Below are positions 24,110 to 48,604 of a DNA stretch of 64,000 bases, piece by piece. Numbering within the stretch: position 1 is the first letter of the stretch; every line of letters begins with the position of its first letter. The notes under the pieces were generated by a model. That model did no database searches. It was not told the DNA's origin and saw only the letters and a list, made by a program, of their open reading frames with translations. Source of the stretch: SAR86 cluster bacterium (GTDB taxonomy: Bacteria > Pseudomonadota > Gammaproteobacteria > Magnimaribacterales > TMED112); assembly GCA_003331605.1 (NCBI GenBank), contig QOPD01000005.1, positions 4,437 to 68,436 on the forward strand. The letters are read 5' to 3'. A program made the translations under genes and the position numbers.

Positions 24110-24138
24110 TTGCAAATGAGAATCATTCTCATTAGTAT
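24110..24138 (+). promoter_or_regulatory. Fur-box-containing sigma70 promoter of the FTR1 permease
   Basis: TTGCAA, 17 nt, TAGTAT; palindrome AATGAGAAT-C-ATTCTCATT at 24115-24133. Confidence 0.85.
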
Positions 24139-24147
24139 TTGTTAACA

Positions 24148-26463: not shown

Positions 26464-27423
26464 ATGATAAAAAAGTTTTTTATATTTATTTATTGCTTAT
26501 TTTTTTCTATAGACCTCATTGCTAGCAATGATGGATATGCCAGAAATGGTCAAGTTGATATTTTCTACAAAGATCTTGGTCCTGCTGAAAATACACCAGT
26601 AATCCTTGTAATGGGTCTAGGAGGCCAGCTAACCTATTGGCCTGATTACCTTTTGGATTTTTTAATCGAGGGTGGCTATCGCCCAATAATCTTCGATAAT
26701 CGGGATGTTGGCTTTTCCACTAGCTTTGAATCTGAAGGTAGGCCCAATGTATTTTTAAATTATCTTAAATTTTATTTAAACCTACCGATTAAATCTCCGT
26801 ATTCCCTTGATGATATGTCTAATGACATCATTGCTGTTTTAGATACCTTAGATATTAAAAAATCACACCTCATCGGCATGTCAATGGGTGGAATGATTTC
26901 TCAACATGTCTTGATAAATAATCCAAATCGATTCTATTCATACACACAAATTGCATCTATGGTTAAAGCGCCTGATGCAAGGACTGCTCCTAAAGGCCGT
27001 TTGGGTGAACTGCTTCGTAATAGGGCAGGACGTTCATTAACAGATGAGCAAAGAATTGATAGAGCAATAGAAATCTACACACTGCTAGGTGCAGGTAAAG
27101 AAAACTTCGATAATCCCGAATTTCGTCAAGGAGTAAAAAAAAATATAGAAAGAAGTCCCAATGACACAGGTTTTTCTAGGCAATTATTAGCCATCATTGC
27201 AGACCGCAAGCGAATTAATAATATTCAAAAGATTGCTACGCCAACACTTATTATTCACGGCACCCTAGATCCACTTATTCCCATATCAGAAGGAAAAAGA
27301 TCACACGAGTTGATAAAAAACAGCAGTTTTGTAGAAATTAAAAATATGGGTCATTTATTAAGCCAAGAAATCTTGGAAGAATTCAGTGAGCCCTTATCTC
27401 AACATCTAGCAAATAATAGTTAA
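26464..27423 (+). CDS. alpha/beta hydrolase (esterase) with signal peptide
   Basis: LVMGLGGQL, FDNRDVGFS, GMSMGG nucleophile elbow, HGTLDPL, NMGH. Confidence 0.92.
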   Translation: MIKKFFIFIYCLFFSIDLIASNDGYARNGQVDIFYKDLGPAENTPVILVMGLGGQLTYWPDYLLDFLIEGGYRPIIFDNRDVGFSTSFESEGRPNVFLNYLKFYLNLPIKSPYSLDDMSNDIIAVLDTLDIKKSHLIGMSMGGMISQHVLINNPNRFYSYTQIASMVKAPDARTAPKGRLGELLRNRAGRSLTDEQRIDRAIEIYTLLGAGKENFDNPEFRQGVKKNIERSPNDTGFSRQLLAIIADRKRINNIQKIATPTLIIHGTLDPLIPISEGKRSHELIKNSSFVEIKNMGHLLSQEILEEFSEPLSQHLANNS

Positions 27424-28235
27424 GACTTTACTGAGTAAGAACCTATTATTCGTAATTCGTCTGAAATATCTTCCAGAATATTAATTAATTCTTGTATTTT
27501 GCTGTCCTCATACCAACCTTCAAAATCTATGAAAAAAGTATGCAAATATTGATTATTTCTGGAGGGTCTCGTCTCTATGCGTGTCATATTTATATCTAAA
27601 TCTGAAAAAGGGTGCAAAATTTTCATTAGCGATCCAGGAGTATCAGCAATATTAACCATGATTGATGTCTTGTTTATTGATGAACGTTCCTCAATCATCT
27701 TGCCAATTACCAAAAATCTTGTTGAGTTATTAGATGAATCCTGTATATCTTTTACATGAGAATGTAATTTAAACAGTTTAATTGCATATTCATTGGCAAT
27801 ACAAAAGATATTAGCATTTTCACTTGCCATTTTGGCTGCCTCTGCCGTGCTTGTGCAGACAATTTTTTCTGCGTTTGGATAATTGCTACTCAACCAATAA
27901 TTACATTGACCAAGAACTTGCGGATGGCTAGCAATTTTTAGAACATTTATATCAGTAATATCTGCATTAGATGAGCAAAATGAATGACTAATGGCAAAAT
28001 TAAGTTCTTGTACGATTTTTAAATCATAATCTATAAGACAATTTAAAGATGAATTTATTACACCCTGATATGAATTTTCAAATGGAATGACGCCATAGTA
28101 GGAATGACTTAAAGCAACTTTTTGAAATATATCTTCAATTGAAGGAAGAGGAACATAAGCAAACTCTGAAGTAAATATTTCTTGCGCTGCTAAATTAGAG
28201 TTTGTACCTTCAGGGCCTAAGTAGAAAACTTTCAC
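27420..28235 (-). CDS. pheA: monofunctional prephenate dehydratase with ACT domain (no chorismate mutase domain)
   Basis: YLGPEGTNS, PFENSYQG, SHPQVLGQC, NSTRFLVI, NMTRIETRP; GTG start. Confidence 0.93.
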   Translation of the reverse strand: MKVFYLGPEGTNSNLAAQEIFTSEFAYVPLPSIEDIFQKVALSHSYYGVIPFENSYQGVINSSLNCLIDYDLKIVQELNFAISHSFCSSNADITDINVLKIASHPQVLGQCNYWLSSNYPNAEKIVCTSTAEAAKMASENANIFCIANEYAIKLFKLHSHVKDIQDSSNNSTRFLVIGKMIEERSSINKTSIMVNIADTPGSLMKILHPFSDLDINMTRIETRPSRNNQYLHTFFIDFEGWYEDSKIQELINILEDISDELRIIGSYSVKS

Positions 28236-28261: not shown

Positions 28262-28286
28262 AAAAAAAAACTGAGCAAGCTCAGTT
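28262..28286 (-). terminator. intrinsic terminator
   Basis: Minus strand: AACTGAG-CTTG-CTCAG followed by 9 T. Confidence 0.9.
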
Positions 28287-28483
28287 CTTTTAAGTTCGAG
28301 ATCAGTGGGTGTCAAAAGTGAGATTATCTTTTGCATCCTTGGATAAGATCTCTTTTATCCTTGGTGGTCAAGTTTGCTTTTTTGCCGGCTAGCTTACTTG
28401 AACTTTCACCCTTCTGTTCTCTGCCTGTGGTTTCTTTCTAATTTGGGTTCTGCAGTTCCCTTCTTAGTCTGTTACCGCGAGGT
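28262..28483 (-). ncRNA. candidate ~220-nt structured non-coding RNA or leader, family unassigned
   Basis: About 40% GC by hand count, against very AT-rich flanks; several complementary stems; bounded by a sigma70 promoter and a terminator; no convincing long ORF. Confidence 0.65.
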
Positions 28484-28735: not shown

Positions 28736-29527
28736 ATGAGTTATGCAATTATTACCGGTCCTACTGCTGGTATTGGAAAAGCTATTTCTTATCAATTAGC
28801 TAAAAAAGGGTACAACCTTATTTTGGTTGCTCGCAGAGAAGAACGATTAAAGGACATCTCAAATGAACTGCAAAAGAAATTTAATATAAAGGTAGATTAT
28901 CTAAAAGAAGACCTAACAAACAAAGATGCACCACGAAATATATTTAACTATGTTGATCAAAATAATTTAGATGTTGAAGTTTTAATTCTTAACGCTGGCT
29001 ACCAGCACCACAAAAAATTTGAGGATGTATCCTTAGAGGACGAAGAAGATTGCTTAAGAGTCTTAGGCCTTTCGGTCATTATGCAAAGCAAACTGTTCAT
29101 TAAAAAATTAATTAATCGTGGTGGCGGTAGAATAATGGTAGTCTCATCTGTTGCTGGATTTGCACCTCCGTCTGGAGAGTTTGCTACTCTATATGGGCCT
29201 GTAAAAACTTTCATGAATCGATTTGTTGAAGCTTTGAATGTTGCATATAACAAACACAATATCTATGCAACAGCATTATGTCCAGGTTTTACTATCACAG
29301 AATTTCATAGCGTTAGTGGCACGCAAGATAGGATGGATAAAGTGCCAAAATTTATGAAGTATTCAGCAGAACACGTCGCTAAAGAGGGAATAGATGGAAT
29401 GTTTAAAAATAAAGAGATAGTAATTTCTGGTGGTATATATAGATTTTTAGTTAGTGGCTTAAGTTATTTGCCTAAATCCTTTATACGGTTTATTGGTAAT
29501 AAAATTGCAGGTGGAAGATATGAGTAG
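28736..29527 (+). CDS. short-chain dehydrogenase/reductase
   Basis: ITGPTAGIG, LVARR, ILNAG, YGPVK, LCPGFT; SD AGGAG. Confidence 0.93.
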   Translation: MSYAIITGPTAGIGKAISYQLAKKGYNLILVARREERLKDISNELQKKFNIKVDYLKEDLTNKDAPRNIFNYVDQNNLDVEVLILNAGYQHHKKFEDVSLEDEEDCLRVLGLSVIMQSKLFIKKLINRGGGRIMVVSSVAGFAPPSGEFATLYGPVKTFMNRFVEALNVAYNKHNIYATALCPGFTITEFHSVSGTQDRMDKVPKFMKYSAEHVAKEGIDGMFKNKEIVISGGIYRFLVSGLSYLPKSFIRFIGNKIAGGRYE

Positions 29528-31042: not shown

Positions 31043-31471
31043 ATGGCAAAAAAATACGTCAATTTTAGAGTAGGTGGAGTTCCTGAAAGGAAAGAAGACA
31101 GTTATACCGTTTGGACCAACGACCTTCTGACAAAACTTATAGCTAGCAAAACTGTTATTGAGCCAAATATGTCAACCTTTGGACATCGATTGCTGGAAAG
31201 TGAGGTAATCTTCGTTGTCATCTCCGGCAGAGGCATAATGGAAGTTGTTGAATATGCCAATACTCAAGATGGACATGGTTCTGATCCCTCACATGGCATT
31301 ATGCATAAAGATGAATACTCTTTATCAGCTGGTGATGTCATCCTCGCTGAAGAAGGCGATTATGTGAAAGTTGTCAATGAAAGTGATCACGACCAATTGG
31401 TGTATCTAAGAATTTTTGATAAACAGGGTTGGCGAGGCCGTTCCCCTGAATCAGACCAAGACCCGCAGTAA
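31043..31471 (+). CDS. cupin-fold protein with a degenerate metal site
   Basis: STFGHRLLESEVIFVVISGRG and AGDVILAEEG..VKVVN resemble cupin motifs 1 and 2. Confidence 0.7.
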   Translation: MAKKYVNFRVGGVPERKEDSYTVWTNDLLTKLIASKTVIEPNMSTFGHRLLESEVIFVVISGRGIMEVVEYANTQDGHGSDPSHGIMHKDEYSLSAGDVILAEEGDYVKVVNESDHDQLVYLRIFDKQGWRGRSPESDQDPQ

Positions 31472-31478
31472 AAATAAT

Positions 31479-32069
31479 ATGAAAATTAAAGTATGCGGGG
31501 TTACCCGAGAAAAAGATATTGAAGCGCTTATAAGTGCAAATATTGATTATATTGGCTTTAATTTTATTGAATCAAGTCCGCGAAAAGTTTCTGTTGATTG
31601 GGCCTTAGATATGTCTAGAAAATACAATTTACAAGATAAATTTACATGCTTGTTAGAAAATCCAGCAGCCGAAGAAATTACAAAGATTTTGGACACAAAT
31701 GAGCAATCAAATTTTCAACTGTATGGTAACTATGAAAAACCTGAAAAAAGTATGTGTTTTAAGCCACTTTCTGCAACAAATTTGCAACAAAATGATTTAT
31801 TTCAAATAAAACCTATTAGAAATACTATTTTCTTGCTTGATAATATGGCTGGCACCCTGGGAGGCAGCGGGAATAAATTTGATTGGTCAATCCTCGGCAA
31901 TGTAAACCTTTCAAATTTTATGATTGCTGGAGGAGTTGGAGTTGAAGATTTAGATTACCTATCAACACTTCAGATTTTTGGGGTTGATTTAAATTCAAAA
32001 ATTGAAATATCTCCAGGGATAAAAGATCTAAATCAGATAAAGCTGTTGGGAATGTTAAAATATGAATAA
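31479..32069 (+). CDS. trpF: phosphoribosylanthranilate isomerase
   Basis: [48 protein letters not shown]. Confidence 0.93.
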
Positions 32070-33228
32070 AGGGTATTTTGGAAATTTTGGCGGGTTGTTC
32101 ATACCTGAAACTCTTTCTTATGCATTAAGAGAGCTGGATGAGCTTTATAACTCCACTAAAGATGATGTTGTTTTTAGAACTGAGCTAGAAGAACTATATA
32201 AAAATTATGTTGGACGACCATCTCCATTATATTTTGCAGAAAAATATACTACTAATATTGGAGGCCCTAATATATGGTTCAAGCGAGAGGATCTTAATCA
32301 TACTGGTGCTCATAAAATCAATAATACTGTCGGACAGGCTTTGTTAGCCAAAAGACTTGGAAAAAAACGAATTATTGCTGAAACCGGGGCAGGCCAACAT
32401 GGTGTTGCAACCGCTACAATCTGTGCCAAACTCGATTTAGATTGCACTATATATATGGGCCAAACCGATATCGTTCGACAGGAGCTTAATGTTTTTAAAA
32501 TTAAAACTCTTGGCGCAGAAGTAATACCTGTTACCAGTGGAACATCAACTCTTAAAGATGCCTTAAATGAATCAATAAGAGACTGGGTTACAAATGTAGA
32601 CAATACACACTACATTATTGGTAGTGTAACTGGCCCACACCCTTATCCAACTGTAGTGAGAGATTTTAATGCAATTGCTGGTCAGGAATTAAAACATCAA
32701 GCAAAAAATCAAATAGGAAAATTGCCGGATATGATTATTGCCTGTGTTGGTGGTGGTTCTAATGCAATGGGTGTCTTTTATCCTTTTATAGACGATGTAG
32801 ATGTTCAATTAATAGGAATTGAAGCAGGTGGAAAAAATAGTTCTGATATAGGTAGTGCATCGATATCAGACGGCAGCATAGGTGTGCTACATGGAGCTAA
32901 AACAAAGATACTACAATCCGAGGATGGAAATATTATGGAAACAAGCAGCATATCAGCAGGCCTAGATTATCCTGGAGTAGGTCCTGAGCATGCTTATTTA
33001 GATGAAATCAAAAGGGCTGAATATAAAAAAATATACGATGAAGAGGCCCTATCTGCTTTTTATAAAGCCTCAAGGCTGGAAGGAATTATACCTGCATTAG
33101 AAACAGCCCATGCTCTTGCTTATTTAGAAAAATTAGGAAGCCTTGATTCATCCAATGATGTGGTGGTAAACATGTCTGGCAGAGGAGATAAAGATCTCTA
33201 TTCGGTAATGAATAATGATAAAAAATAA
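32062..33228 (+). CDS. trpB: tryptophan synthase beta chain
   Basis: [56 protein letters not shown]. Confidence 0.99.
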
Positions 33229-33994
33229 GTTCTTAAATTTAGCGGCCAATCAAAAAAAGGCATTTATACCTTATGTGGTTGCTAATTACCCAAACCAAGA
33301 TGTTTTTACTGAAACTTTGTATACCTTAAAAGATTTAGGAGCAGATTTAATTGAAGTTGGTATCCCATTTTCTGATCCAATTGCTGAAGGCAAGATTATT
33401 GAATCCGCTCATCATGAAGTTCTTAATAATAATTTTAATTTAGTAAGCGCATTGGATGTTATTAAAAATTTTAAATCCAATTCTGATATACCTATTGTTT
33501 TAATGGGATATACCAATTCATTTATTTCACCAAGCCTTGAAGTATTTATAGAGCGAGCAAAAGACTCACTTATTGATGGATTTTTAATTGTAGATTTACC
33601 TTATGTAGAAAAAGATATCTACAAAACATTTCATGATAATGAAATTGAATTTATTCAACTTATAGCTCCAACTACTCCATTAAATGAAATTAAATCATGC
33701 ATATCAAACAATCCTGCGTTTATATATTTCATCTCTCAAAGAGGAGTCACTGGATCATCAAATATCAATAAAAATGAGGTGTTAGACAATATTCAAGCCA
33801 TCAGAAATAAAACTAATTTACCGGTTGTCTTAGGCTTTGGATTAAAAGATCCATCACAAATAAATGAATTTAAATCACACGCTGATGGATTTGTAATTGG
33901 CAGTGCCGTTGTTGAATTATTAAACCAAGATAATCCTCAAGTAAAATTACGCAAATTCCTGACACCCATCCTTACAGCAATTAAAAATGAATAA
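33215..33994 (+). CDS. trpA: tryptophan synthase alpha chain
   Basis: [38 protein letters not shown]. Confidence 0.97.
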
Positions 33995-35429
33995 AGAAGA
34001 TTTTTTAAGATACAAGAATTCATCTTATTCACATATACCTGTTTATGAAGAATTTACAGCAGATTTAGTTAGTCCGCTTTACGTTTATTCAAACTTTTAC
34101 AATCAAGAAAATACTTTTTTATTTGAATCAGCAAAGTCTCATGAAGTAAAAGGCCGTTACTCAATAATGAGTCTTCCATCTCAAAAAAAATATAATTACT
34201 TTAAAGATAAGTTAGAGATAGTTAATGATTCACAAACTACAAAACAAAGAATTATTAATGCTTTTGATCATATAGATAAAATTAGTCAATCTTTTTCATC
34301 GCCAAAAATAAATAATCTCCCTGCATTTCTTGGAGGTTTGGTTGGTTACTTTAGTTATGAATCATTCCAATTTATAGAGCAAAAAGTTACTTTTCCAGAT
34401 CAAGACATCCCTTTAATATCTCTAATAGAATGCAATGAATTAATTATTTTTGATAACTTCAAAGGTACATTTTATATTGTCGTAAATACCACCGATAAGT
34501 CAGAAATAGGCTGGGAGAAAGCAAAGAAAAGAATTTCCGAAATTAAGCAAGCAGTTTTTTCTCTTCAACCCTCTGTTAATCAAAGCATTTCAATAGATAA
34601 TAAATCCCTAAAATCTTCTTCTAATGTCGATAAAAAAACCTTTATAAATCAAGTTAAAGATCTAAAAAAACTTATTAACCAGGGGGAAATAATGCAAGCA
34701 GTATTATCTAAGGAGATTACCTTTGATGGTGAATTTGATCCCTACACCCTTTATCGTGCTCTTCGATTAATTAATCCATCGCCTTACATGTTTTTCTTAA
34801 ACTTTAATAAATTCAGGATTATTGGTTCTTCACCAGAAATACTGGTTCAAAAAAATGATGACAAAGTAACAATAAGGCCTATTGCAGGTACACGTAGACG
34901 AGGTCTTAATAAATCTGAGGACCTAAAAAATAAAATTGATCTTATAGAGGATGAAAAAGAAAAATCTGAACATATGATGCTAGTTGATTTAGCTAGGAAT
35001 GATCTTTCGAAAGTATGTGAACAAGGTACTGTTCAAGTAGACGAGATGATGGTGGTTGAGAAGTACTCCCATGTTATGCATATGACATCGAATGTAATTG
35101 GAAGATCAAAAACAGATGTTTCCATTATAGATTGTATGAAAGCAGCCTTACCTGCAGGCACTTTAAGTGGAGCTCCAAAAATCCGAGCTATGGAAATTCT
35201 TAGTGAAATTGAAAAACGCCCAAGAGGTGTATATGGAGGTGCAGTAGGGTATCTGGGTTTTAATGGTTCACTGGATACAGCTATTGTTATTCGTACTGGT
35301 ATGCATTTTGATGATCATATAAAAGTAGGTGTTGGAGCAGGAATTGTTTACGATTCAGATCCCGAATCAGAGTGGGAGGAAACCGAATCAAAAGCAAAGG
35401 TATTTTATGAGGCGCTGAGATATAAATGA
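33987..35429 (+). CDS. trpE: anthranilate synthase component I
   Basis: LFESA..GRYSI, NPSPYMF, GSSPE, RPIAGTR, EHMMLVDLARND, PAGTLSGAPK. Confidence 0.96.
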   Translation: MNKEDFLRYKNSSYSHIPVYEEFTADLVSPLYVYSNFYNQENTFLFESAKSHEVKGRYSIMSLPSQKKYNYFKDKLEIVNDSQTTKQRIINAFDHIDKISQSFSSPKINNLPAFLGGLVGYFSYESFQFIEQKVTFPDQDIPLISLIECNELIIFDNFKGTFYIVVNTTDKSEIGWEKAKKRISEIKQAVFSLQPSVNQSISIDNKSLKSSSNVDKKTFINQVKDLKKLINQGEIMQAVLSKEITFDGEFDPYTLYRALRLINPSPYMFFLNFNKFRIIGSSPEILVQKNDDKVTIRPIAGTRRRGLNKSEDLKNKIDLIEDEKEKSEHMMLVDLARNDLSKVCEQGTVQVDEMMVVEKYSHVMHMTSNVIGRSKTDVSIIDCMKAALPAGTLSGAPKIRAMEILSEIEKRPRGVYGGAVGYLGFNGSLDTAIVIRTGMHFDDHIKVGVGAGIVYDSDPESEWEETESKAKVFYEALRYK

Positions 35430-36007
35430 AAATCTGTTTGATTGATAATTACGATTCATTTACTTTTAACGTTCAACATCAGCTATTAATGCTTGATCAC
35501 GAAGTAGATGTGATACGTAACGATAAGATCTCCATTGATGAGATATCTCAACTGGATTACGATGCTTTTGTTATTGGTCCTGGCCCATCAAACCCTAAAA
35601 ATGCTGGAATAAGTTTAGAGCTAATAAATTATTTTTATAATAAGAAACCTATTTTGGGTATTTGTTTAGGGCACCAATGCATTGGTGAGGTGTTCGGCGG
35701 AAACATTGTCATTGCGAATAAAATAATGCATGGCAAGACCTCAAATCTAAGCCACACAAAATCTTCAATTTTTCAAAATATAAAAGAGCCATACATTGCA
35801 ATGAGATATCACAGCTTGGTTATCTCTGAAGAATCAGTATCAGATGAGCTAGAGGTTTTAGCCTGGTGTGAGGATGATAATCACAAAACGATAATGGCAG
35901 TTAAGCATAAAACTTATCCAGTTGTGGGAATACAGTTTCATCCTGAATCAATATTTACTGAACAAGGCAACAAGTTACTAGATAACTTTTTCACTTTATA
36001 TGGATAA
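35426..36007 (+). CDS. trpG: anthranilate synthase component II (glutamine amidotransferase)
   Basis: IDNYDSFT, GPGP, GICLGHQ, RYHSL, QFHPES. Confidence 0.95.
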   Translation: MKICLIDNYDSFTFNVQHQLLMLDHEVDVIRNDKISIDEISQLDYDAFVIGPGPSNPKNAGISLELINYFYNKKPILGICLGHQCIGEVFGGNIVIANKIMHGKTSNLSHTKSSIFQNIKEPYIAMRYHSLVISEESVSDELEVLAWCEDDNHKTIMAVKHKTYPVVGIQFHPESIFTEQGNKLLDNFFTLYG

Positions 36008-37004
36008 TCTATTAGCAATACTAAACAAACCTGCATCGCGAAGAGCGGAACTAGAGTTTTTATTCAGTCATTTGCTTAGTGAAGATTCATCTGATGAAGA
36101 AAAAAAAGAAATTTTATTAAGTTTAAACGAGGTTGGCATTAACTATTATCATCTTTCCGCATTATCAAATGAGATTCTTAAACACTCAAACTTAATTGAC
36201 TTAGGGCATAACGATTTTATCGATACGTGTGGTACAGGTGGTTCTGGTCAGTCTATTTTTAACTGTTCGACCCTTTCTGCATTTACTGTTGCTTCATGTG
36301 GCGGGAAAGTAATCAAACATGGCAATAGATCAATAACAAGCAAATCTGGTAGCGCTGATTTCCTAGAAAGGGCGGGCGTAAATTTAAATGTTGGTAACAG
36401 TCAGCTTATCGGCCTATTTCAAAAATTAGGCATTTGCTTTTTATTTGCTCCAAATCAACATCCAAAATTAAAAAATGTTGCTAGAGTTCGTAAAGAACTA
36501 GGTGTAAGAACAATATTCAATATCTTGGGACCACTTGTTAACCCTGCCAAACCACAATTCCAATTGCTGGGAACATCCGATTCCTCTAGTAACATAAATA
36601 TGGCAAATGCTTTGTTAAACAATGGAATACAAAGAGCTATAGTTGCAACCTCTAGTTCAGGAATTGATGAAATAGCTATACATGAACCGACTTCAATAAC
36701 AGAAATAAGAAATAATGAAATCTTAGAATGGCAGTTTAATCCTAAAGATTACGGCTTTGTAGACTGCTCACTACCAGATATCCAGGTACAATCACTTGAA
36801 GAAGCTTACCTATTTGGGGTAGAGGTGCTAAATGGAAAAAGAGGACCAGGACTCGATATGGTATCTCTAAATGCAGGTTTCTGTTTGTATTTATTAGGAT
36901 TATGTGACGATCTAATCGAATGTTTTGAAATAGCAAAAAAACAATTAATATCTGGCAAAGTCCTTCTTAACTTAAATGTCTACGCTAAAGCAACTCAAGA
37001 ATGA
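36000..37004 (+). CDS. trpD: anthranilate phosphoribosyltransferase
   Basis: DTCGTGG, FNCST, KHGNRSITSKSGSAD, RTIFNILGPLVNP, G.DE. Confidence 0.97.
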   Translation: MDNLLAILNKPASRRAELEFLFSHLLSEDSSDEEKKEILLSLNEVGINYYHLSALSNEILKHSNLIDLGHNDFIDTCGTGGSGQSIFNCSTLSAFTVASCGGKVIKHGNRSITSKSGSADFLERAGVNLNVGNSQLIGLFQKLGICFLFAPNQHPKLKNVARVRKELGVRTIFNILGPLVNPAKPQFQLLGTSDSSSNINMANALLNNGIQRAIVATSSSGIDEIAIHEPTSITEIRNNEILEWQFNPKDYGFVDCSLPDIQVQSLEEAYLFGVEVLNGKRGPGLDMVSLNAGFCLYLLGLCDDLIECFEIAKKQLISGKVLLNLNVYAKATQE

Positions 37005-37759
37005 ATCAACTTGATACCATATTTCAATCAAAAAGAGCCCAAGTAGCTGAAGGTAAGAAAACCCAATCCATAGATTTCTTTATTGAAAATTTTAACCAGA
37101 AGCGTAACTCTGGAAATTTTTTTAATACCTTGGATAGCAATAGAAACAATTTTAAAATTATTGCTGAAACTAAAAAAGGGTCGCCATCAGCAGGTATTAT
37201 TAAAGAGCAATATGATCCTCTTTCAATAGCAAAATCCTACGAAGAGAAGGGCTATAAAAATATTTCTGTCTTAACAGAATCTGGATATTTTTATGGGATA
37301 AATTCAGATCTCACAATGATTGCCCTAAATACCAGCTTAAAAGTGTTAAGAAAAGACTTTATTTTTGATGAGTGGCAAATATACGAATCAAAATACATTG
37401 GAGCTGATTGTATTTTACTTATCGCAGAATACTTATCGGAAGCTCAAATTTCAGCATTTATAAAGCTTGCTAAGTCACTTGATCTAGACGTTTTACTTGA
37501 ATTTCACGAAGAACAGCAATTGAGCAAGGTGCTTAACCAAGAACTAGACCATGTAGGCATCAACAACCGTAATCTTAAAAACCTTCAAACAGATAATATG
37601 CATGCTCTTAGGGTATTTAAAAAATATAGAGATGACTTTCAAAGATTTTCTATAATCGCTGAATCGGGCTTATCTATCTCTAAAGATTTGGAAATTTACC
37701 AAAATGAGGGTATAAATAAATTTCTCATTGGAGAAGGAATATTAAAAAGTTTGCTCTAA
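37001..37759 (+). CDS. trpC: indole-3-glycerol-phosphate synthase
   Basis: IIAETKKGSPSAG, SVLTE, LRKDF, GADCILLI, GINNRNL, IAESG. Confidence 0.96.
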   Translation: MNQLDTIFQSKRAQVAEGKKTQSIDFFIENFNQKRNSGNFFNTLDSNRNNFKIIAETKKGSPSAGIIKEQYDPLSIAKSYEEKGYKNISVLTESGYFYGINSDLTMIALNTSLKVLRKDFIFDEWQIYESKYIGADCILLIAEYLSEAQISAFIKLAKSLDLDVLLEFHEEQQLSKVLNQELDHVGINNRNLKNLQTDNMHALRVFKKYRDDFQRFSIIAESGLSISKDLEIYQNEGINKFLIGEGILKSLL

Positions 37760-37779: not shown

Positions 37780-38127
37780 TTGCTAACTGAACCTGAGCTC
37801 TATTTTATCGAGCCGCAAGATAAAGCAATTATCTCAGGTCCTGTAAAAGTTGTTTTTGGATTAAAAGATTTTGGCGTTGCTCCTGCTGGATACAATATTA
37901 ATAACACCGGCCATCATCACTTGTTGATCAATGTTGATTTTCCTATTGATTTCACTAAACCAATCCCTGCTGATAGCAATCATATTCATTTTGGCAAAGG
38001 ACAAACTGAAACTATATTGGATCTACCTAAAGGGGAATACAGATTGAGGTTGCTACTTGGAAACTATGTACATATTCCACATAGCAACCCAATTTATTCG
38101 GAAGAGATACTAATAACCGTTAATTAA
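37780..38127 (+). CDS. DUF4399-like protein (may start at ATT 37741)
   Basis: GVAPAG...TGHHHLLIN...HIHFGKGQTE...LPKGEYRLRLLLGNYVH.PH. Confidence 0.8.
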   Translation: MLTEPELYFIEPQDKAIISGPVKVVFGLKDFGVAPAGYNINNTGHHHLLINVDFPIDFTKPIPADSNHIHFGKGQTETILDLPKGEYRLRLLLGNYVHIPHSNPIYSEEILITVN

Positions 38128-39245
38128 TCAATTATATTGATTACTCCATCACCAGCCATTCCAGCATGTAAAGTACAAAAATAGTACATTGTATCAACGT
38201 CTAAATTTGTTGGAACAACCCATGTCAGAGTATTTTGGTCGCCACTAACTCCTTCAGTGTAAGTAGTTCCACCACCAAATGTTCCATCTTTAGTTTTACT
38301 AAGTCGGAATGGATGACTATTACCAAATGCTGAAGTATCAAATACAACGGTTTGACCACGACGAACTGTAATACTGCCATGTATTTCACCATTCATGTAG
38401 TAAGTGTTGCCTTGATTGGTTACGGTGACCTCTGCAGTTTCTGAATAAGTTTCAACTTTGACATTGTCGTAATGTACGCCAGTTGGAGCGTAATTGCCTG
38501 CTGTATTCGTGAATCCGGATTGATAAATATGACCAATCATTGCTTCTGTGATTTCAAAATCTAAAGTCAAAGTTTGCCACTCTGTGGTTAGTTCTGTTGT
38601 ATCAGTCTCTACAAAAAGTAATTCACTAAAATCACTTGAATTTAAAACTTTTATAAAAGCACTACATTCAGCTCCACTTGCTCCATTGTCAGGGTTAGTT
38701 GAGCCGCAATTATTGGATTCAGGGTGTTTGGCATCAAAGGTCATTCTGTAAGTCCCTACCATAGAAGCTGTAATCAAACCTTCATCAGCTCCAAGTTCTC
38801 TAAAGAAATTTGCTTCAACAATTCCTCCGTTGTGTGTGCCATCTTGATAATTGCTGTAGATATTGACGTATTTATTCACTTCCTCTTCGACTAGTGCACT
38901 AATATCACCTGCTATTGGAGCTGGTGCTGCAGCATATCCACCAATGTATGAACCATCAGAATTAAACTGATTAACATAGGCATCCCATGGTGCTAAGTTA
39001 GCATCATCAGATGAATAAGCTTCAAAATCATCAGAGTATGTAACATTGGTTACTGGTTCTGGTGTTGGTGCTGGCGTTGGCTCAGGAGTAGGCTCAGGAG
39101 TAGGCTCAGGAGTTGGTGCTGGCGTTGGTGCTGGTGTAGGAGCAGGCGTCGGAGTTGGGGTATAAGGATCAGAGTCACCGCCACCGCCACCGCCACAAGC
39201 AGTTAGTAAAACGAGAGTCAAACCTGTAAATAGTTTTTTAAACAT
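38124..39245 (-). CDS. lipoprotein with Pro/Thr linker, beta-sandwich (CBM-like) domain and C-terminal cupredoxin-like domain
   Basis: Lipobox LTAC plus poly-Gly; 36-aa PT tract; W/Y-rich beta domain (EWQTLTLDF, HYDNVKV); SHPF...YYFCTLHAGM. Confidence 0.75.
   Translation of the reverse strand: MFKKLFTGLTLVLLTACGGGGGGDSDPYTPTPTPAPTPAPTPAPTPEPTPEPTPEPTPAPTPEPVTNVTYSDDFEAYSSDDANLAPWDAYVNQFNSDGSYIGGYAAAPAPIAGDISALVEEEVNKYVNIYSNYQDGTHNGGIVEANFFRELGADEGLITASMVGTYRMTFDAKHPESNNCGSTNPDNGASGAECSAFIKVLNSSDFSELLFVETDTTELTTEWQTLTLDFEITEAMIGHIYQSGFTNTAGNYAPTGVHYDNVKVETYSETAEVTVTNQGNTYYMNGEIHGSITVRRGQTVVFDTSAFGNSHPFRLSKTKDGTFGGGTTYTEGVSGDQNTLTWVVPTNLDVDTMYYFCTLHAGMAGDGVINIID
39054..39161 (-). repeat. coding tandem repeat (TP-AP/TP-EP), degenerate 12-bp units
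   Basis: 18 X-Pro dipeptides; GGCTCAGGAGTA repeated at 39079-39113. Confidence 0.95.
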
Positions 39246-39289: not shown

Positions 39290-40447
39290 TTATCGTTTAG
39301 ATTTTTTGGTTTCGTCTCTATGCTTTTTAAGATATTTCATAAAGGGCGTTCCACCAGTGCCTCTAACTGTAGAACCTCCAGTACCAAATAGTGTGTTTTT
39401 AACATTTTGTTGATGAATGTAATCTGCAGCATATTGCAAATGCTGAGTTCGAAAGCTTGCCATCTCTTCAAGACATTCATTAATTAGAGAATTAATTTTG
39501 CTACTTGTAAGTGCAGCATCCACAACTTTAGATTCTTCTTCTACTGTTCGGATGAAATTTCTATGATTGTTTGGCATGTATATTTTCATTTCATCAAGAT
39601 AATCTCGTAATTCGTCTTTTTCATGACGAACATTAAACAATGCATCAAGGGATGGAATAATGGAGCTCTGTGCACCAGTTTCACCTCTAAATAATTGTGG
39701 TTTATCTTGAAAGAAACCATCATAAATTAGACCTTCAGGTAAATCTGGATTATTTTTCCATCCAAATATGTATGGTCTTACTCTGTGATAGTAGATATAT
39801 GGATCGCATTTCTCAGGCATTAATCTAAAGATTTCATTAACCTTTACCATAGATTTTTTTATCTTTTGTAACTCTTCTGCCAATAAGGTTTCATCGTTCC
39901 ACAGTTCATCATCTACAATTTTAGCTACACTTGATATTGCTGGACTTGCAGCATCTTCAATGCAAACATGGATTGTCACAAACCAGTCTTCATCGATACC
40001 ACCTAAAAAATTATTGATTAGAGCTACATTATCTAAGGAAATATCTTCAGATTCATTTATTTTGTTCCAATTGTGTAAGCAATAGGAGGCATAACTCAGA
40101 ATAGGAGGGCGCTTAAACTTTTCTGAGAGCTTAACCCAAGGTGTACTAATGTTGTGTGGTAAATTTTGGACAGGCTTTAGATCACCCCATACATATGCAT
40201 GAGCTATAAATGAGAGTTGCGCAAATAGTAATTCTTGCTCCCCTAGAGAGTGATCATCTAAATGTAGATCTAGGGTTTTTATTTTGTCTATAGTGGGTCG
40301 TATTTGATTGGTAAGAAGGAGTTTTGGAAGCTCTGCTGCCACATTGCTAATTATATCTGTACTAGTAGTTTTATTTTGAACAACTCTTAAAGGAGTTGCT
40401 TCGGGAAGAAATCCTCGTTTTGTTATATATTTTTTTAGCTTGACCAT
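39290..40447 (-). CDS. indoleamine 2,3-dioxygenase-family heme protein
   Basis: FIAHAYVWG, PPILSYASYCLHNW, GETGAQSS, FRTQHLQYAADYI (proximal His), GTGGTPFMKYLK; all correspond to IDO1 motifs. Confidence 0.9.
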   Translation of the reverse strand: MVKLKKYITKRGFLPEATPLRVVQNKTTSTDIISNVAAELPKLLLTNQIRPTIDKIKTLDLHLDDHSLGEQELLFAQLSFIAHAYVWGDLKPVQNLPHNISTPWVKLSEKFKRPPILSYASYCLHNWNKINESEDISLDNVALINNFLGGIDEDWFVTIHVCIEDAASPAISSVAKIVDDELWNDETLLAEELQKIKKSMVKVNEIFRLMPEKCDPYIYYHRVRPYIFGWKNNPDLPEGLIYDGFFQDKPQLFRGETGAQSSIIPSLDALFNVRHEKDELRDYLDEMKIYMPNNHRNFIRTVEEESKVVDAALTSSKINSLINECLEEMASFRTQHLQYAADYIHQQNVKNTLFGTGGSTVRGTGGTPFMKYLKKHRDETKKSKR

Positions 40448-40487
40448 TATTTATTTTAAATTATTTATTCTTTTTTTGCTTCTGTTA

Positions 40488-40539
40488 TTGCAAATGAGAA
40501 TCATTCTCAATAATATACTAAATGAGAATCATTCTCATT
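40488..40539 (+). promoter_or_regulatory. sigma70 promoter with two tandem Fur boxes
   Basis: TTGCAA (40488), 17 nt, TAATAT (40511); boxes AATGAGAATCATTCTCAAT (40493-40511) and AATGAGAATCATTCTCATT (40521-40539). Confidence 0.88.
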
Positions 40540-40549
40540 TAAAAATCAG

Positions 40550-42613
40550 ATGAATTTATACAATAAATTGAAAATTATTTTTCTTCTAACAATTATCAAT
40601 TTTGTTTGTGGTGAAAATGAATCTGCTCTAGAAGAGCTTGTAGTAAAAGGAAAAGTTCTATATCAAGACCAAGTCAGTGCTTTAAAAACTCCAGTTCCGA
40701 TACTCAATGTCCCTCAAACTGTTTCCATCATTACCGATGAAGAAATCTTAAAAAAAGGTTTTAACAACATTGAAGATATTATTAGATTTGTTCCGGGTGT
40801 CACTAGCTCACAAGGTGAAGGGCATAGAGACGCAATTGTCATACGAGGCATTAGATCTACTGCTGATTTCTATCAAGATGGCATACGAGATGATGTTCAG
40901 TATTTTCGTTCTTTATACAACGTTGATCAATTAGAAATACTGCGTGGTCCTAACGCTCTGCTTTTTGGTAGAGGTGGTACTGGTGGCATTGTGAATCGTG
41001 TGACAAAAAAAGCTGTAACATCAGAAAACTTTACTCGTATGAATTTAGGGTTTAATACTTTTGGAGCGACAGACTTAGCAATAGATAGTAATCATATCTT
41101 AAGTATAAACTCTGGATTGCGTATTAACCTACATACCGATCAGCTGGAGAATCACCGTGATTATTTCTTTGGTAATAGGATGGGTATTAACCCTTCACTA
41201 ACACTAATTATAGATTCTGAGCTAACTCTTAACCTCTCATACGAATACATCAACCATGAAAGATTTATCGATAGAGGGATCCCTACGCTCAATGGTAGAC
41301 CAGATACAAACTTAAGAGACACTGTATTTGGCAATCCTGATTTTAACTATCACACCGTAGAAGCAGCTATTTATAGAGTACAAGCAAGCTATCAAATGTC
41401 AGATACATTTAAGGCAAACTTCAACCTTACAGCAAATAATTTTGACAAAGTTTATCAGAACATTTACCCATCAGATTACGATGGTAGTCTGGTATTAATG
41501 GACGGATATTTAGATCCAACCAAACGAGACAACCTTATTTTTTCTGGTAATCTTATAAATGAAATAAGTTCTGGTAAGGTTATTCATACTTTGTTGTACG
41601 GTATTGAATACATTCAAACCACCAATGAAAATTCACGCTTGGATGCATATTGGTCAGCAACACAGGACGATACTGATTTATTTTTTATTGCAACACCTAT
41701 CGATTTTTCTATTAATGGTGGCGGTATAGATACCTATTTAAGTTACTTGGCTCCTAATAGTAAAACTCATTCAAAAATAACTGTCTCTTCATTTTATTTG
41801 CAAGATCAAATAGATCTTAGCGAACGATGGAAGTTTATTGTAGGAGCTCGACTAGATCAATTTGATATTAGTGTTGATGATCTCATCAACAACACCTCAG
41901 AGAAAAAAAATGACAATACTATATCTCCTAGAGGAGGATTAATATTTAAGCCACAAGACAATGTATCAATGTACCTAAGTTACAGTGAAAGCTTTTTACC
42001 AAGATCAGGAGAACAATATAAAAAATTAAATTCCAGTGCAGCTCGCTTGGATCCCGATGTTTTTGAAAGTAAAGAAATTGGGATAAAGATACTCTTTAAT
42101 AATCAGTTAAATCTAACAGCTGCTTATTTTAACAGCGAGCAAATTAGAGCAGCTCGGGATAATATTTCTGGTGAAACATTTAACATCAGGGGTCTAAGTG
42201 TTGATGGTTATGAACTCGAAGTTAAAGGCGACATTGGACAAAAATTTTCATATGTTATTGCCAGTTACAGCTCATTAAATGGTAAAACCCAAACAGGAGG
42301 CACTCCTCGAGAAATCCCTGAATTTACCTTTTCTGCAAATGCCCAATACCAGCTGACAAACAAGTTCAATCTTGGTTTTGGTTATTTATCTCAAGGCGAA
42401 TCATTAATTATTGATGACAATGAGAATTTAACTTTACCTCAGTATAGCCGTCTAGATTTATCTGGTTCGTACAACATCAGCGATCGGCTTACACTGCGTC
42501 TACATCTTGATAATGTGCTCGATGAACTTTATTTTCCACATGCTCACGCCGTGCATCAAGTTAGCGTCGGGGAGCCATTCAACGCTCGAATTGTATTTAG
42601 CTATTATTTTTAG
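40550..42613 (+). CDS. TonB-dependent receptor (siderophore-receptor type)
   Basis: LEELVVKG (TonB-box-like), PQTVSII, LEILRGPNALLFGRG.TGG.VN.VTK, C-terminal aromatic residue (SYYF). Confidence 0.95.
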   Translation: MNLYNKLKIIFLLTIINFVCGENESALEELVVKGKVLYQDQVSALKTPVPILNVPQTVSIITDEEILKKGFNNIEDIIRFVPGVTSSQGEGHRDAIVIRGIRSTADFYQDGIRDDVQYFRSLYNVDQLEILRGPNALLFGRGGTGGIVNRVTKKAVTSENFTRMNLGFNTFGATDLAIDSNHILSINSGLRINLHTDQLENHRDYFFGNRMGINPSLTLIIDSELTLNLSYEYINHERFIDRGIPTLNGRPDTNLRDTVFGNPDFNYHTVEAAIYRVQASYQMSDTFKANFNLTANNFDKVYQNIYPSDYDGSLVLMDGYLDPTKRDNLIFSGNLINEISSGKVIHTLLYGIEYIQTTNENSRLDAYWSATQDDTDLFFIATPIDFSINGGGIDTYLSYLAPNSKTHSKITVSSFYLQDQIDLSERWKFIVGARLDQFDISVDDLINNTSEKKNDNTISPRGGLIFKPQDNVSMYLSYSESFLPRSGEQYKKLNSSAARLDPDVFESKEIGIKILFNNQLNLTAAYFNSEQIRAARDNISGETFNIRGLSVDGYELEVKGDIGQKFSYVIASYSSLNGKTQTGGTPREIPEFTFSANAQYQLTNKFNLGFGYLSQGESLIIDDNENLTLPQYSRLDLSGSYNISDRLTLRLHLDNVLDELYFPHAHAVHQVSVGEPFNARIVFSYYF

Positions 42614-42658: not shown

Positions 42659-43093
42659 ATGAAATTAAATTTTCCTCCAGTCATTTTGTTGCTTTGCTTA
42701 ATGCTGCAATTCCTATTAATTGGTATTGCTCCAATTGCTATACAACTATCGGTACTTATAGGACTTTTGATGATCTCTTTTTCCATATTTTTAATTATTT
42801 ATTCCTTCATCGAGCTAAAAAACCATGAAACTACCTATATTCCTGATGGTGAGCCTGAGCAATTAGTAACATCTGGTCCATTTGCCTATTCAAGGAATCC
42901 AATCTATCTTGGCATGTTGGGCATATTGCTATCGGTAGGATTGTTTTCTCAATCGCTATCATCCTTTCTTATACCAGTCTTATTTATTTTCATTATTGAA
43001 AATACCTGGATTAAACATGAAGAAGATAAACTAAAATCTTTGTTTGAAAAAGAATGGAATGAATATGTTTTAAAAACCAGAAAATGGCTTTAG
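42659..43093 (+). CDS. isoprenylcysteine carboxylmethyltransferase/PEMT-family membrane methyltransferase
   Basis: LVTSGPFAYSRNPIYLG, HEEDKL, W..Y...TRKWL. Confidence 0.9.
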   Translation: MKLNFPPVILLLCLMLQFLLIGIAPIAIQLSVLIGLLMISFSIFLIIYSFIELKNHETTYIPDGEPEQLVTSGPFAYSRNPIYLGMLGILLSVGLFSQSLSSFLIPVLFIFIIENTWIKHEEDKLKSLFEKEWNEYVLKTRKWL

Positions 43094-46453: not shown

Positions 46454-48604
46454 ATGAAACAATTCAAAGGGCTATTTCTATTAATTCCATTCCTATTATT
46501 ATCTGATATTCAGTTTGATGGTTTAGTCGACAAAGATGAATGGCAAAATGCTGTTAGATACGACATTAATGTTGAAACTAGACCCAGCTATAATACACCA
46601 GCAGAACACAAAACCGATGCCTATGTCATGCATGATGAGTTTTATCTTTACGTTGGTTTTAAAGTTTATGGCAATAAAGAATTTATTAGGGCTCAAGTTA
46701 GATCACGTGATGGTATTTTCTACACCAATGACCACGTAACATTTGGTTTGGATGCCTATGGCGATGGTAGGTATTTTATTGGGTTTGGAGCCAATCCCTA
46801 TGGCAGTATCTTAGATTATAAAGAAGGTCCGATTGGAGAACCAGAACGCTCGTACAACGTAGAATTTGAAGCTGAAGCACAATTCACAGATTACGGTTAT
46901 GACGTTGAACTTAAAATACCATTTTCATCGATTAATTACGAAGATACAGACATTAAGCGTTGGAAGATAGCTTTCTATAGAAAGCTTTATAATAAGGGTG
47001 TTGAGTCTGGTTACCTTAGTCATAAAGTCATTGCTGGCAAAGGGTGTCTCATATGCCAATCGCCATACTTTTATGAATTAACCGATATTAGTCAGAAATC
47101 AAAAAAACGACTCATTCCATCACTAACAGCAAATTCTAGGTCTTTTAGAAATGATTCGGGTGCAATGGTCACAGACACAATAGATCCTGAAATATCATTG
47201 AATGGTATATATGAGGTAAACGATAATACTTTTGAGTTCACCATTAATCCAGATTTTTCACAAGTTGAAGCGGATGAAAGTCAGATAAACGTTAATTCCA
47301 CAACAGCACTGCGTTATCCTGAACGCAGAATCTTCTTTAACGAGGGCGCAGATTTTCTTAGAACAGATTTAGGTGCAGTATACACAAGATCAATCAATTC
47401 ACCCGATTATGCGTTAAAAGTATTTAATAGAGGAGATACACACAGCTATTATTTCCTTGATGCAGAAGATCAAAGCACACCTTTAATTGTCCCAGGAAAT
47501 ATGCGTAGTTATTCAGCTTTACTAGGCAAAAGTCATGCCAATATTTTTAGCTATAACTACAACAGAACCAACGGCCAATACCTTTCATTTTTGGCTACAA
47601 ACAGGGAATACGAAGAGGGGGGCTTTGGTCGAAATTACGTTTCTAGAGGCTTATTTATTCTTGATGATAAGCATGCATTCCGTTTTGAGCTAGCTCAAAG
47701 TGATACAGATGAACCTGTGAGTGATTTGATAACAACAACAGCTGAAACAGATAAATATACTTACCGTTTAGATGGCGAATCATTCAGCGGCTATGGTGGG
47801 TTAGTTGCATTTTCTCGAAGTACTGAAAATTGGTTTACATACTTTCAACGTGCTACAAAATCACCGGAATTTCGTACGGATTTAGGATTTACCACCGAAA
47901 ATAATTGGATTAGAGATGATTTGTGGCAAAGGTTTGAGTATAGAGGCACTGGTCTATTACGCTCAGCCAATGCTAGATTAAATGCCAGTGTATCTCACAA
48001 CTACGACAATCAACTTCTGCAACAAGAGTATGGCATTAACCTTAATCTTAATTTGGCCAACCAAATGGAATTTAGATTTGGGTATGAAAACAATGTCAAG
48101 GTCATGTTTGAAGAATACAATTTTAAAAACTACTCAGATTACAATTTCAATGCAACCTACTCACCATCAGGGAACTTTTATTTTAGGTTAGGCTATTCTG
48201 CTGGTGAGGGCATTGCACGAAATATCGATACTCCTTCTATTGGCGATAGAGAAAACTACAATCTAAGCACTCGTTATCAATTCACTGATGAATTCAATGT
48301 TCGGCTTCAATATCGATACAACTCACTATCAGATCAAATTACCAAAGAAGATTATTTTGCTGGTTATGTAACTTCGGTCCGTGCTACCTATCAATTCAAT
48401 AAGGATTCGTTTATTAGAGTTGTGCACGAATACAACGATTTTAATAATGATTCATATACACAAGCTTTGTTTCAATGGCAGCCAGATTCAGCGACAATCT
48501 TCTACATAGGCGGCACAATAAATCAAGAGGATATCGAAGGCACATGGGTTAGAGAAGGCTCGCAAATTTACATGAAACTCCAATATTTGTTCAATTTTGA
48601 TTGA
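46454..48604 (+). CDS. outer-membrane protein with CBM9-like N-terminus and DUF5916-like beta-barrel
   Basis: FDGLVDKDEW, INPDFSQVEAD, YPERRIFF.EG.DF; C-terminal QYLFNFD barrel signal. Confidence 0.85.
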   Translation: MKQFKGLFLLIPFLLLSDIQFDGLVDKDEWQNAVRYDINVETRPSYNTPAEHKTDAYVMHDEFYLYVGFKVYGNKEFIRAQVRSRDGIFYTNDHVTFGLDAYGDGRYFIGFGANPYGSILDYKEGPIGEPERSYNVEFEAEAQFTDYGYDVELKIPFSSINYEDTDIKRWKIAFYRKLYNKGVESGYLSHKVIAGKGCLICQSPYFYELTDISQKSKKRLIPSLTANSRSFRNDSGAMVTDTIDPEISLNGIYEVNDNTFEFTINPDFSQVEADESQINVNSTTALRYPERRIFFNEGADFLRTDLGAVYTRSINSPDYALKVFNRGDTHSYYFLDAEDQSTPLIVPGNMRSYSALLGKSHANIFSYNYNRTNGQYLSFLATNREYEEGGFGRNYVSRGLFILDDKHAFRFELAQSDTDEPVSDLITTTAETDKYTYRLDGESFSGYGGLVAFSRSTENWFTYFQRATKSPEFRTDLGFTTENNWIRDDLWQRFEYRGTGLLRSANARLNASVSHNYDNQLLQQEYGINLNLNLANQMEFRFGYENNVKVMFEEYNFKNYSDYNFNATYSPSGNFYFRLGYSAGEGIARNIDTPSIGDRENYNLSTRYQFTDEFNVRLQYRYNSLSDQITKEDYFAGYVTSVRATYQFNKDSFIRVVHEYNDFNNDSYTQALFQWQPDSATIFYIGGTINQEDIEGTWVREGSQIYMKLQYLFNFD

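Follow-up and report, generated by a model that had tools for sequence, protein, structure and literature searches.

In the quinolobactin (qbs) cluster of Pseudomonas fluorescens ATCC 17400, the genes for a haem dioxygenase that cleaves tryptophan (Trp) and for a TonB receptor lie together under iron regulation, and in Pseudomonas both the Pseudomonas quinolone signal (PQS) and anthranilate are linked to iron. Siderophore receptors of the PiuA, PiuD, and Fiu type are Fur regulated and are paired in their hosts with an adjacent oxygenase gene. Here we describe a locus in 64,000 nucleotides of contig QOPD01000005.1 from a SAR86 cluster bacterium (this whole 64-kb stretch is called the window below), in which the gene for an IDO-family haem dioxygenase stands divergent from the gene for a TonB-dependent siderophore receptor, and two Fur boxes lie in the short spacer between them. 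The enzyme is probably an ordinary Trp or indole 2,3-dioxygenase whose gene shares local regulation with that of a xenosiderophore receptor. The finding is a further IDO of a known family and a standard Fur-regulated receptor, whose genes have a promoter region in common in a single SAR86 lineage.

The locus departs from each of these described systems. The qbs cluster uses a TDO-type enzyme, whereas the window has an IDO, and it contains genes for KMO, an aminotransferase, a methyltransferase, an AMP-ligase, and sulfur transfer, none of which was found in the window except for an unrelated small PEMT-like methyltransferase. PiuA (Acinetobacter baumannii, PDB 5FP1; Pseudomonas aeruginosa, 5FOK), PiuD (5NEC), and Fiu (Escherichia coli, 6BPM) are the closest solved relatives of the window receptor, but they are not its orthologues. 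The oxygenase beside PiuA and Fiu is a 2-oxoglutarate (2OG)/Fe(II) enzyme, whereas the one beside the window receptor is a haem IDO. For the enzyme, the comparison is with human IDO1 and IDO2 (PF01231; PDB 2D0T, 6CXU, and 9UYZ), which have the same two-domain all-helical fold over about 390 columns and are about 28% identical to the window protein in structural superposition. Unlike the human enzymes, the window IDO is bacterial and cytoplasmic and has no immune role. The bacterial IDOs of Yuasa, Ushigoe and Ball (2011) are likewise stand-alone PF01231 proteins of about 380 to 400 amino acids, none of which comes from SAR86; they belong to genomes in which either IDO or TDO is reported.

Fold and haem pocket of the SAR86 IDO

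The IDO open reading frame matches PF01231 in Pfam with an E value of 1.8e-88 and 297.6 bits, against a cutoff of 26, over profile positions 9 to 411 of 412. Human IDO1 and IDO2 are its best solved relatives in a sequence search of the PDB, with E values of about 1e-50 (about 3e-51 for the alignment with human IDO1). In the alignment, the proximal haem ligand His346 of human IDO1 corresponds to H336, Arg231 to R224, Phe163 to Phe156, and the GTGG of the JK loop to GTGGT at residues 363 to 367, so that each of these elements is kept. Differences from the human enzyme include F164V, F226Y, F227Y, and the Ser167 position of the distal pocket, which is occupied by His160. A distal His is the solution used by TDO. 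The top PDB match is 6CXU, an engineered S167H mutant of human IDO1, and it ranks best because the window protein has a His at this very position; a literature search on S167H found nothing.

H160, R224, H336, and GTGGT are invariant across an alignment of 26 sequences (alignment A1), which holds the window IDO and its closest relatives in metagenome collections, 37 to 70% identical and mainly metagenome representatives without assigned taxa. The AlphaFold2 model built from this alignment has a pLDDT of 90.2 and a pTM of 0.90, and it superposes on the IDO1 and IDO2 crystal structures with TM scores of 0.88 to 0.91 and an rmsd of about 2 Å. The only part of low certainty is made up of residues 351 to 366, directly before the GTGG motif, which in the model most likely represent the flexible JK loop. 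Judged by its alignments and predicted fold, the window protein is a genuine full-length member of the IDO family. Its haem pocket is intact, its distal His resembles that of TDO, and it is apparently catalytically equipped. A TDO-like distal His that is invariant in a bacterial clade and sits on an IDO scaffold is a useful natural experiment for the mechanism of haem dioxygenases.

The shared spacer and its Fur boxes

The spacer between IDO and the receptor holds two 19-bp palindromes (Table 1). Both boxes read TGAGAATCATTCTCA, with two symmetric mismatches each to the classical 7-1-7 Fur motif TGATAATnATTATCA. When the 19-mer AATGAGAATCATTCTCATT was searched for with up to three mismatches, nine strand-matches were found at five sites in the window, compared with 0.09 in shuffled sequences. 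The sites outside the spacer stand before a ferritin-like gene and the FTR1 iron permease gene, and FTR1 of a relative (locus L007) is also preceded by the same motif, at 16577. Because the same palindrome precedes ferritin and FTR1, it can be read as the Fur box of this lineage, and its association with a ferritin-like gene, FTR1, and a siderophore-type receptor points to Fur and not to another regulator of that family. The boxes before ferritin suggest that the action of Fur at that gene may be positive or indirect, so that the presence of a box does not by itself tell in which direction a gene is regulated.

The two palindromes in the spacer would be Fur operators, primarily those of the receptor, which is a canonical Fur target. 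As the spacer is very short, the boxes would also cover any sigma-70 promoter for IDO. A Fur footprint usually extends over about 30 bp per site. The candidate sigma-70-like hexamers for the window IDO are all interleaved with the boxes or abut them, although the scan that produced them did not rise above chance. On the minus strand, a -35 ATGAGA at 40538-40533 and a -10 TATTAT at 40515-40510 interleave with the boxes, and a second promoter-like site, ATAACA-17-AATAAT at 40488-40460, lies outside them. The candidate promoter on the plus strand, TTGCAA/TAATAT, was found by eye only. With the 102-bp spacer taken up by the boxes, it is plausible that Fur controls IDO in this lineage.

Conservation of the spacer was followed in relatives. 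A genome scan with IDO, with one genome per species, returned 80 loci, across which linkage was scored by tblastn and Pfam (individual loci carry L numbers here). In 11 distinct receptor-IDO spacers the boxes are kept, although IDO is only 57 to 71% identical and the flanks diverge, and in an alignment of eight spacers they stand out as conserved islands. The distance from the receptor ATG to the nearest box is 10 to 40 nt in every receptor-linked locus. A second box is found 45 to 50 nt from the IDO ATG in the window, L001, L004, and L011. In L012 and L013, the spacer is 171 to 173 bp long and has two boxes by the receptor and a separate perfect box 53 to 55 nt from the IDO ATG, a distance like that in the four preceding spacers, which argues that IDO keeps an operator of its own. 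In L007, L014, L015, L016, and L018, there is one full box with a half-site, 28 to 34 nt from the receptor and 64 to 75 nt from IDO. In the 400 bp upstream of IDO, every receptor-linked locus has a box with up to four mismatches, and none was found there in the roughly 70 IDO loci that lack the receptor. Fur control is thus not a property of the IDO family but would come with the receptor.

The original prediction had described an IDO-family enzyme with a visible proximal His, a 102-bp intergenic region shared with a divergent TonB receptor, and two near-perfect Fur palindromes within it. Each of these descriptions holds: the family assignment is confirmed by the profile match, by the correspondence of H336 to His346, and by TM scores of about 0.9, the length of the spacer is as described, and the palindromes, one exact and the other with one mismatch, recur before ferritin and FTR1. 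Field metatranscriptomes show higher expression of SAR86 TonB-dependent transporters when Fe is limiting (PMC11069385); the parts of the text and supplements of that paper that were accessible do not mention IDO.

The TonB-dependent receptor

The receptor has Plug and TonB_dep_Rec_b-barrel domains in Pfam; a signal peptide is present, and the N-terminus appears complete. It passes the siderophore-receptor subfamily model TIGR01783 of NCBIfam with 246.2 bits against a cutoff of 223.5. Its best equivalog is the Fiu model, but the score of 159 bits is far under the cutoff of 686, and so it is not a Fiu orthologue. The nearest solved relatives, PiuA (5fp1 and 5fok) and PiuD (5nec), are matched over the full length at E values of about 1e-47 to 1e-50, followed by CntO, FoxA, and Fiu, and homologues that are 59% identical carry the JGI name "catecholate siderophore receptor". 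On the strength of these matches, the receptor belongs to the PiuA/PiuD/Fiu-like (catecholate-type) group of xenosiderophore receptors. Its best 120 matches are all at least 58% identical, and three of three that were sampled are again linked to IDO.

Haem uptake was considered for the receptor and rejected. The protein scores 138.9 bits with the hemin-receptor model TIGR01785, for which the cutoff is 316.85, the FRAP/NPNL motifs of haem receptors were looked for in it and are absent, and its nearest relatives are PiuA, PiuD, and Fiu.

Distribution of IDO and of its linkage to the receptor

Nearly all of the matches that are 51 to 62% identical to the window protein come from SAR86 single-cell genomes and metagenome-assembled genomes, including SAR86A and SAR86E. 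IDO is thus found in many SAR86 lineages, where it is widespread and, it appears, vertically inherited. Remoter matches (42 to 48%) come from Fimbriimonadales, Acidobacteriota, Legionella/Coxiellaceae, Actinomarina, cyanobacteria, and others. In protein collections, the family is plentiful in marine metagenomes, with 7413 clusters at E<=1e-10 among those scored, and rare overall, with 2820 of 1.84 billion representatives at 50% identity. The clade of the window IDO is sharply set apart there, as one representative is 59% identical and the next is 44% identical. IDOs that are 52 to 53% identical are also found, without the receptor, in two loci binned as Woeseiaceae/Woeseia (L037 and L039).

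The linkage to the receptor is confined to one SAR86 lineage. L001 to L016, L018, and L091 to L093 have the gene order ExoI, (glutaredoxin), FGGY kinase, PEMT-like methyltransferase, and receptor, divergent from IDO, with the IDO 57 to 71% identical and the receptor 50 to 59% identical. Among the 80 genome loci, this block is limited to L001 to L016 and L018. The other SAR86 loci (L017, L019 to L036, L040 to L047, and L054) and the non-SAR86 loci have no such receptor beside IDO, a result that rests on Pfam assignments for representative neighbours; a phmmer screen with one query sequence for TonB receptors near IDO was insensitive and missed receptors across families. L045 has an unrelated 896-aa receptor downstream of IDO in convergent orientation, with an OAD-beta neighbour. 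With the pairing and the Fur sites present in only one SAR86 lineage, the arrangement speaks for local co-regulation and not for a new Trp-based iron-uptake pathway. L016 is a 1.7-kb contig binned as Crocinitomicaceae that shows the SAR86-type arrangement of receptor, Fur box, and IDO at 60% identity, which suggests a mis-binned SAR86 fragment.

Elsewhere the neighbours of IDO are heterogeneous. Pfam checks of representatives place pyruvate kinase, DUF1330, and malate synthase G beside IDO of the SAR86A type, and a CinA/cytidylyltransferase-like gene upstream and a CBM9-like gene downstream of IDO of the SAR86E type. In other lineages, the neighbours are a PatB-like aminotransferase and an SDR gene, OAD-beta, or thioredoxin-like, rhodanese, and GGT genes. 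When 101 immediate neighbours of non-SAR86 IDOs were pooled and assigned with Pfam, no family was enriched and no kynurenine-pathway enzyme was found. No conserved operon partner of IDO was thus found outside the linked lineage, where the neighbours are mixed and of housekeeping type.

Some of these neighbourhoods deserve a separate description. In the SAR86E-type loci L041 (5837-6946), L040 (1240-2355), and L043 (5528-6649), a protein of roughly 370 aa is encoded directly upstream of IDO on the same strand, with weak CinA (nicotinamide mononucleotide [NMN]-deamidase-like) and cytidylyltransferase-like domains. These domains are a possible hint of a link to the metabolism of nicotinamide adenine dinucleotide (NAD); NCBIfam gave no assignment for the gene. 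In L020 and L025 (5833-9048), IDO is packed tightly between a gene for a PatB-family pyridoxal phosphate (PLP)-dependent C-S lyase/aminotransferase, with a gap of 8 bp, and an SDR gene, all on one strand, a possible three-gene operon. A protein of roughly 720 aa with a weak CBM9-like N-terminal domain is encoded a few kilobases from IDO both in the window (46454-48604, +) and in L041 (8474-10660). Its presence near IDO in the window-type and the SAR86E-type gene orders suggests that the receptor block was inserted or rearranged in the stretch that separates IDO from this gene.

On the far side of IDO, away from the receptor, the gene order of the linked lineage breaks. Some loci have a lipoprotein gene (326 to 741 aa) followed by DUF4399 and the trp operon, and in L007, L014, and L018, neither the lipoprotein gene nor trp is beside IDO and the receptor-IDO pair is kept. 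Adjacency to trp is therefore not tied to the pair. Since it is also absent in all other SAR86 lineages, the trp operon was rejected as a functional partner.

Role of the enzyme

The window IDO most likely carries out the ordinary reaction, in which O2 is used to open the indole ring of L-Trp, or of a related indole, and N-formylkynurenine is formed. According to a review, a bacterium has either TDO or IDO (PMC4191572), which suggests that IDO performs the ordinary first step of Trp breakdown. The product would enter Trp catabolism or contribute to the supply of NAD; it would not serve a dedicated siderophore pathway, and the nearby trp operon would be a synteny neighbour of the IDO gene without functional partnership. 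Given the compact divergent layout, the boxes would probably also repress IDO and the lipoprotein gene downstream of it, so that both would be repressed by Fe-Fur and derepressed together with the receptor at low iron.

Certain points weigh against this account. Characterized bacterial IDOs are reportedly often poor catalysts with Trp. The scan for promoter hexamers found 14 where 19 were expected, and as it does not exceed chance, the promoter positions proposed above are conjectural and that of the IDO promoter is a guess. In the five loci with a single full box, this box is nearer to the receptor, so that Fur control of IDO is perhaps not universal even within the linked lineage. Finally, expression of a haem enzyme at low iron would be counter-intuitive and could mean either a functional link to iron or a different action of Fur.

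The partners that a kynurenine or siderophore pathway would call for were looked for around IDO. In about 55 open reading frames of the window scanned with Pfam or NCBIfam (a few short ones went unscanned), we recognized no formamidase, kynureninase, KMO, HAAO, aminotransferase for kynurenine, adenylating enzyme, or exporter, in line with the original prediction, which had recognized no kynurenine formamidase or kynureninase. The conserved receptor-IDO block of the relatives revealed no kynurenine-pathway or siderophore-biosynthesis partner. Neither a kynurenine operon (kynA/IDO-kynB-kynU) nor a qbs-like cluster was found in the 64-kb window or in the block of the relatives. A literature search found no paper linking SAR86 with IDO or kynurenine metabolism; the SAR86 genome papers that were searched mention neither Trp nor kynurenine, and neither IDO nor kynurenine is listed in the available portions of the supplements to the SAR86 pangenome and Fe-limitation metatranscriptome papers. 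Co-occurring picocyanobacteria have kynurenine among their exometabolites (PMC10654061), which makes any use of indole compounds by SAR86 ecologically relevant.

A somewhat unlikely explanation is that IDO is an incidental neighbour: the boxes would control the receptor only, the IDO promoter would escape Fur or be constitutive, and the adjacency would be inherited gene order. This would fit the constant position of a box close to the receptor ATG, the loss of the IDO-proximal box in the five single-box loci, the absence of a Fur box at IDO in all other lineages, and the promoter-like site at 40488-40460 outside the boxes. The whole block left of IDO is also collinear, which means that the receptor-IDO pair is no better conserved than the background synteny. 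However, the boxes span 40493-40539 in a spacer of only 102 bp, where even the outer candidate -35 would be touched or covered by a Fur footprint, and the separate perfect box on the IDO side of the longer spacer in L012 and L013 is hard to place in such a scheme. The same separate box, together with the divergent arrangement of IDO and receptor under shared Fur boxes and the small methyltransferase gene that always follows the receptor, could be taken as signs of something more, namely an iron-acquisition module in which IDO, once derepressed, would supply N-formylkynurenine or kynurenine for a Trp-derived chelator or reductant of the quinolobactin, xanthurenate, or 8-hydroxyquinoline type, and the receptor would import the ferric complex. 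The qbs cluster and the link of PQS and anthranilate to iron in Pseudomonas are precedents for such chemistry. We nevertheless regard this proposal as improbable. Neither the window nor the conserved block yielded a KMO, a kynureninase, a formamidase, an aminotransferase for kynurenine, an adenylating enzyme, or an exporter, the linkage occurs in one lineage and IDO itself is widespread without it, and the receptor is a generic xenosiderophore receptor of the PiuA/Fiu type. Moreover, SAR86 genomes are streamlined, and the SAR86 papers that were searched speak of siderophores only as compounds predicted to be imported by TonB-dependent transporters and not as products of the cell (PMC11582366). 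A wider version, in which the receptor and the IDO-lipoprotein unit would form a Fur-controlled module for iron acquisition, is doubtful to a like degree. The dioxygenase would then either make a kynurenine-type chelator or reductant, from Trp or from an indolic or catecholic ligand that is imported, or degrade the cargo of the receptor. If true, the module would be a minimal counterpart, in a streamlined genome, of Trp-derived iron chemistry of the quinolobactin/PQS type in very abundant surface-ocean bacteria.

Two further roles for the enzyme appear highly unlikely. IDO may oxidize an indolic or aromatic compound imported by the receptor, either to release iron or to use the carbon, a proposal that we give very little weight and that is modelled on the Fiu-YbiX and PiuA-PiuC pairs, each of which combines a receptor with a neighbouring Fur-regulated oxygenase. 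The closest solved relatives of the receptor are indeed PiuA and PiuD, with Fiu weaker, and IDO enzymes accept a range of indoles, as in the IDO2 structures with 5-hydroxytryptamine (5-HT) and methoxy-Trp. Catechol siderophores have been proposed as a source of both iron and carbon for SAR86 (PMC11582366). But the same IDO orthologue occurs without the receptor in most SAR86 lineages, the enzyme is cytoplasmic with no inner-membrane transporter linked to it, and it is unrelated to the 2OG/Fe(II) oxygenases YbiX and PiuC. It is also very improbable that the protein lacks dioxygenase activity and serves instead, expressed according to iron status, to bind, buffer, or sense haem or to bind O2. 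The haem ligand is conserved, Fur boxes lie upstream, and IDO-like myoglobins, such as the molluscan IDO-type myoglobin, exist (PMC4191572). Against such a role, the residues of the catalytic pocket (R224, the Phe at the Phe163 position, the GTGG loop, and the TDO-like distal His) are invariant in the bacterial clade, the receptor is not of the haem type, and no haem-uptake or haem-oxygenase genes are adjacent.

An ordinary dioxygenase that is co-regulated with the receptor thus accounts for part of what the original prediction proposed. It had tied a Trp-to-kynurenine step to iron status, with quinolobactin as a precedent; Fur control of IDO is plausible, and the idea of a quinolobactin-like chelator derived from kynurenine is not supported, given that no partners were found and that the linkage is restricted to one lineage. 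A link between kynurenine and iron is weakly supported. This link would be of interest only if IDO expression follows iron and an iron-related product is found; as it stands, the locus presents a lineage-specific sharing of a promoter region. Conservation of the linkage in relatives, on which the proposal had been staked, came out half-way, as the pair is kept in one SAR86 lineage and is not found in other SAR86 lineages or other phyla. The trp operon does lie 1.5 kb away as had been noted, but the meaning attached to that distance does not survive the loss of the adjacency in L007, L014, and L018.

Genes flanking the receptor-IDO pair

The features of the locus are listed in Table 1.

Table 1. 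Coordinates of the receptor-IDO locus, its Fur boxes, and its flanking genes within the window
Feature	Coordinates	Strand	Basis
IDO-family haem dioxygenase gene, 385 aa	39290..40447	-	Pfam PF01231, PDB alignments, alignment A1, AlphaFold2 model
TonB-dependent siderophore receptor gene, 687 aa; signal peptide, plug, and 22-strand-barrel type domains	40550..42613	+	Pfam, NCBIfam, PDB
Divergent promoter region shared by IDO and receptor, 102 bp	40448..40549		Sequence read directly
Fur box A, receptor-proximal, AATGAGAATCATTCTCATT, exact, perfect palindrome around the central base; 10 nt to receptor ATG	40521..40539		
Fur box B, IDO-proximal, AATGAGAATCATTCTCAAT, 1 mismatch to AATGAGAATCATTCTCATT; 45 nt to IDO ATG, 38 nt to receptor ATG	40493..40511		
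Exact Fur-box copy just upstream of FTR1 iron permease gene (24139-25017, +)	24115..24133		
Two Fur-like boxes upstream of ferritin-like gene (2807-3280, -), with 3 mismatches and 1 mismatch, respectively	3335-3353; 3543-3561		
PEMT/ICMT-family small membrane methyltransferase gene, 144 aa, 46 bp downstream of receptor	42659..43093	+	Pfam PEMT E=8e-14
Gene for a lipoprotein of 373 aa, same strand as IDO and 44 bp downstream of it	38124..39245	-	Translation, AlphaFold2
DUF4399 gene, convergent with lipoprotein gene	37780..38127	+	Pfam PF14347 E=4e-32
trp operon trpF-B-A-E-G-D-C, convergent with IDO-lipoprotein unit	31416..37759	+	NCBIfam trpE/trpG/trpD/trpC; Pfam for collinear genes of L001 and L004

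Downstream of the receptor, the PEMT-like gene is found in all receptor-linked loci whose sequence extends that far, and it is possibly co-transcribed with the receptor. The lipoprotein gene on the other side probably forms one operon with IDO, as suggested by the layout of the two genes, and no terminator-like site was found between them. In the lipoprotein, whose lipobox is LTAC, a long linker of Pro and Thr, a beta-sandwich of the CBM4/22-like type, and a small beta domain at the C-terminus can be distinguished. It has no Pfam match, and its homologues are few and modular in architecture; the size of the gene varies widely in relatives, some of which lack it. The AlphaFold2 model has a pLDDT of 74 and matches CBM4, CBM22, and CBM16 folds with TM scores of about 0.5 to 0.6 normalized to the targets. 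The C-terminal domain contains an amicyanin-like HPF...YFCTLHAGM motif (C-x2-H-x2-M), and the HPF...C-x2-H-x2-M motif is shared with an otherwise different 570-aa protein encoded downstream of IDO in L004. For the idea of a cupredoxin at the C-terminus, a fold search with the whole protein gave only CBM-type matches, which concern the larger domain. The DUF4399 gene lies 1 to 3.5 kb from IDO in all receptor-linked loci, and trpC, the last gene of the trp operon, ends 1.5 kb from the 3' end of IDO.

Elsewhere in the window, Rfam places an IMES-1 RNA (RF02034) at full length at 28286-28477 on the minus strand; the match scores 140 bits, and the gathering score is 81. This environmental RNA motif from the sea, whose function is unknown, is placed here in a SAR86 genome. 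The site lies in a gap of roughly 500 bp between a prephenate dehydratase gene (27420-28235, -) and an SDR gene (28736-29527, +), and in L007 a gap of equal size (12586-13091) separates the same two genes.

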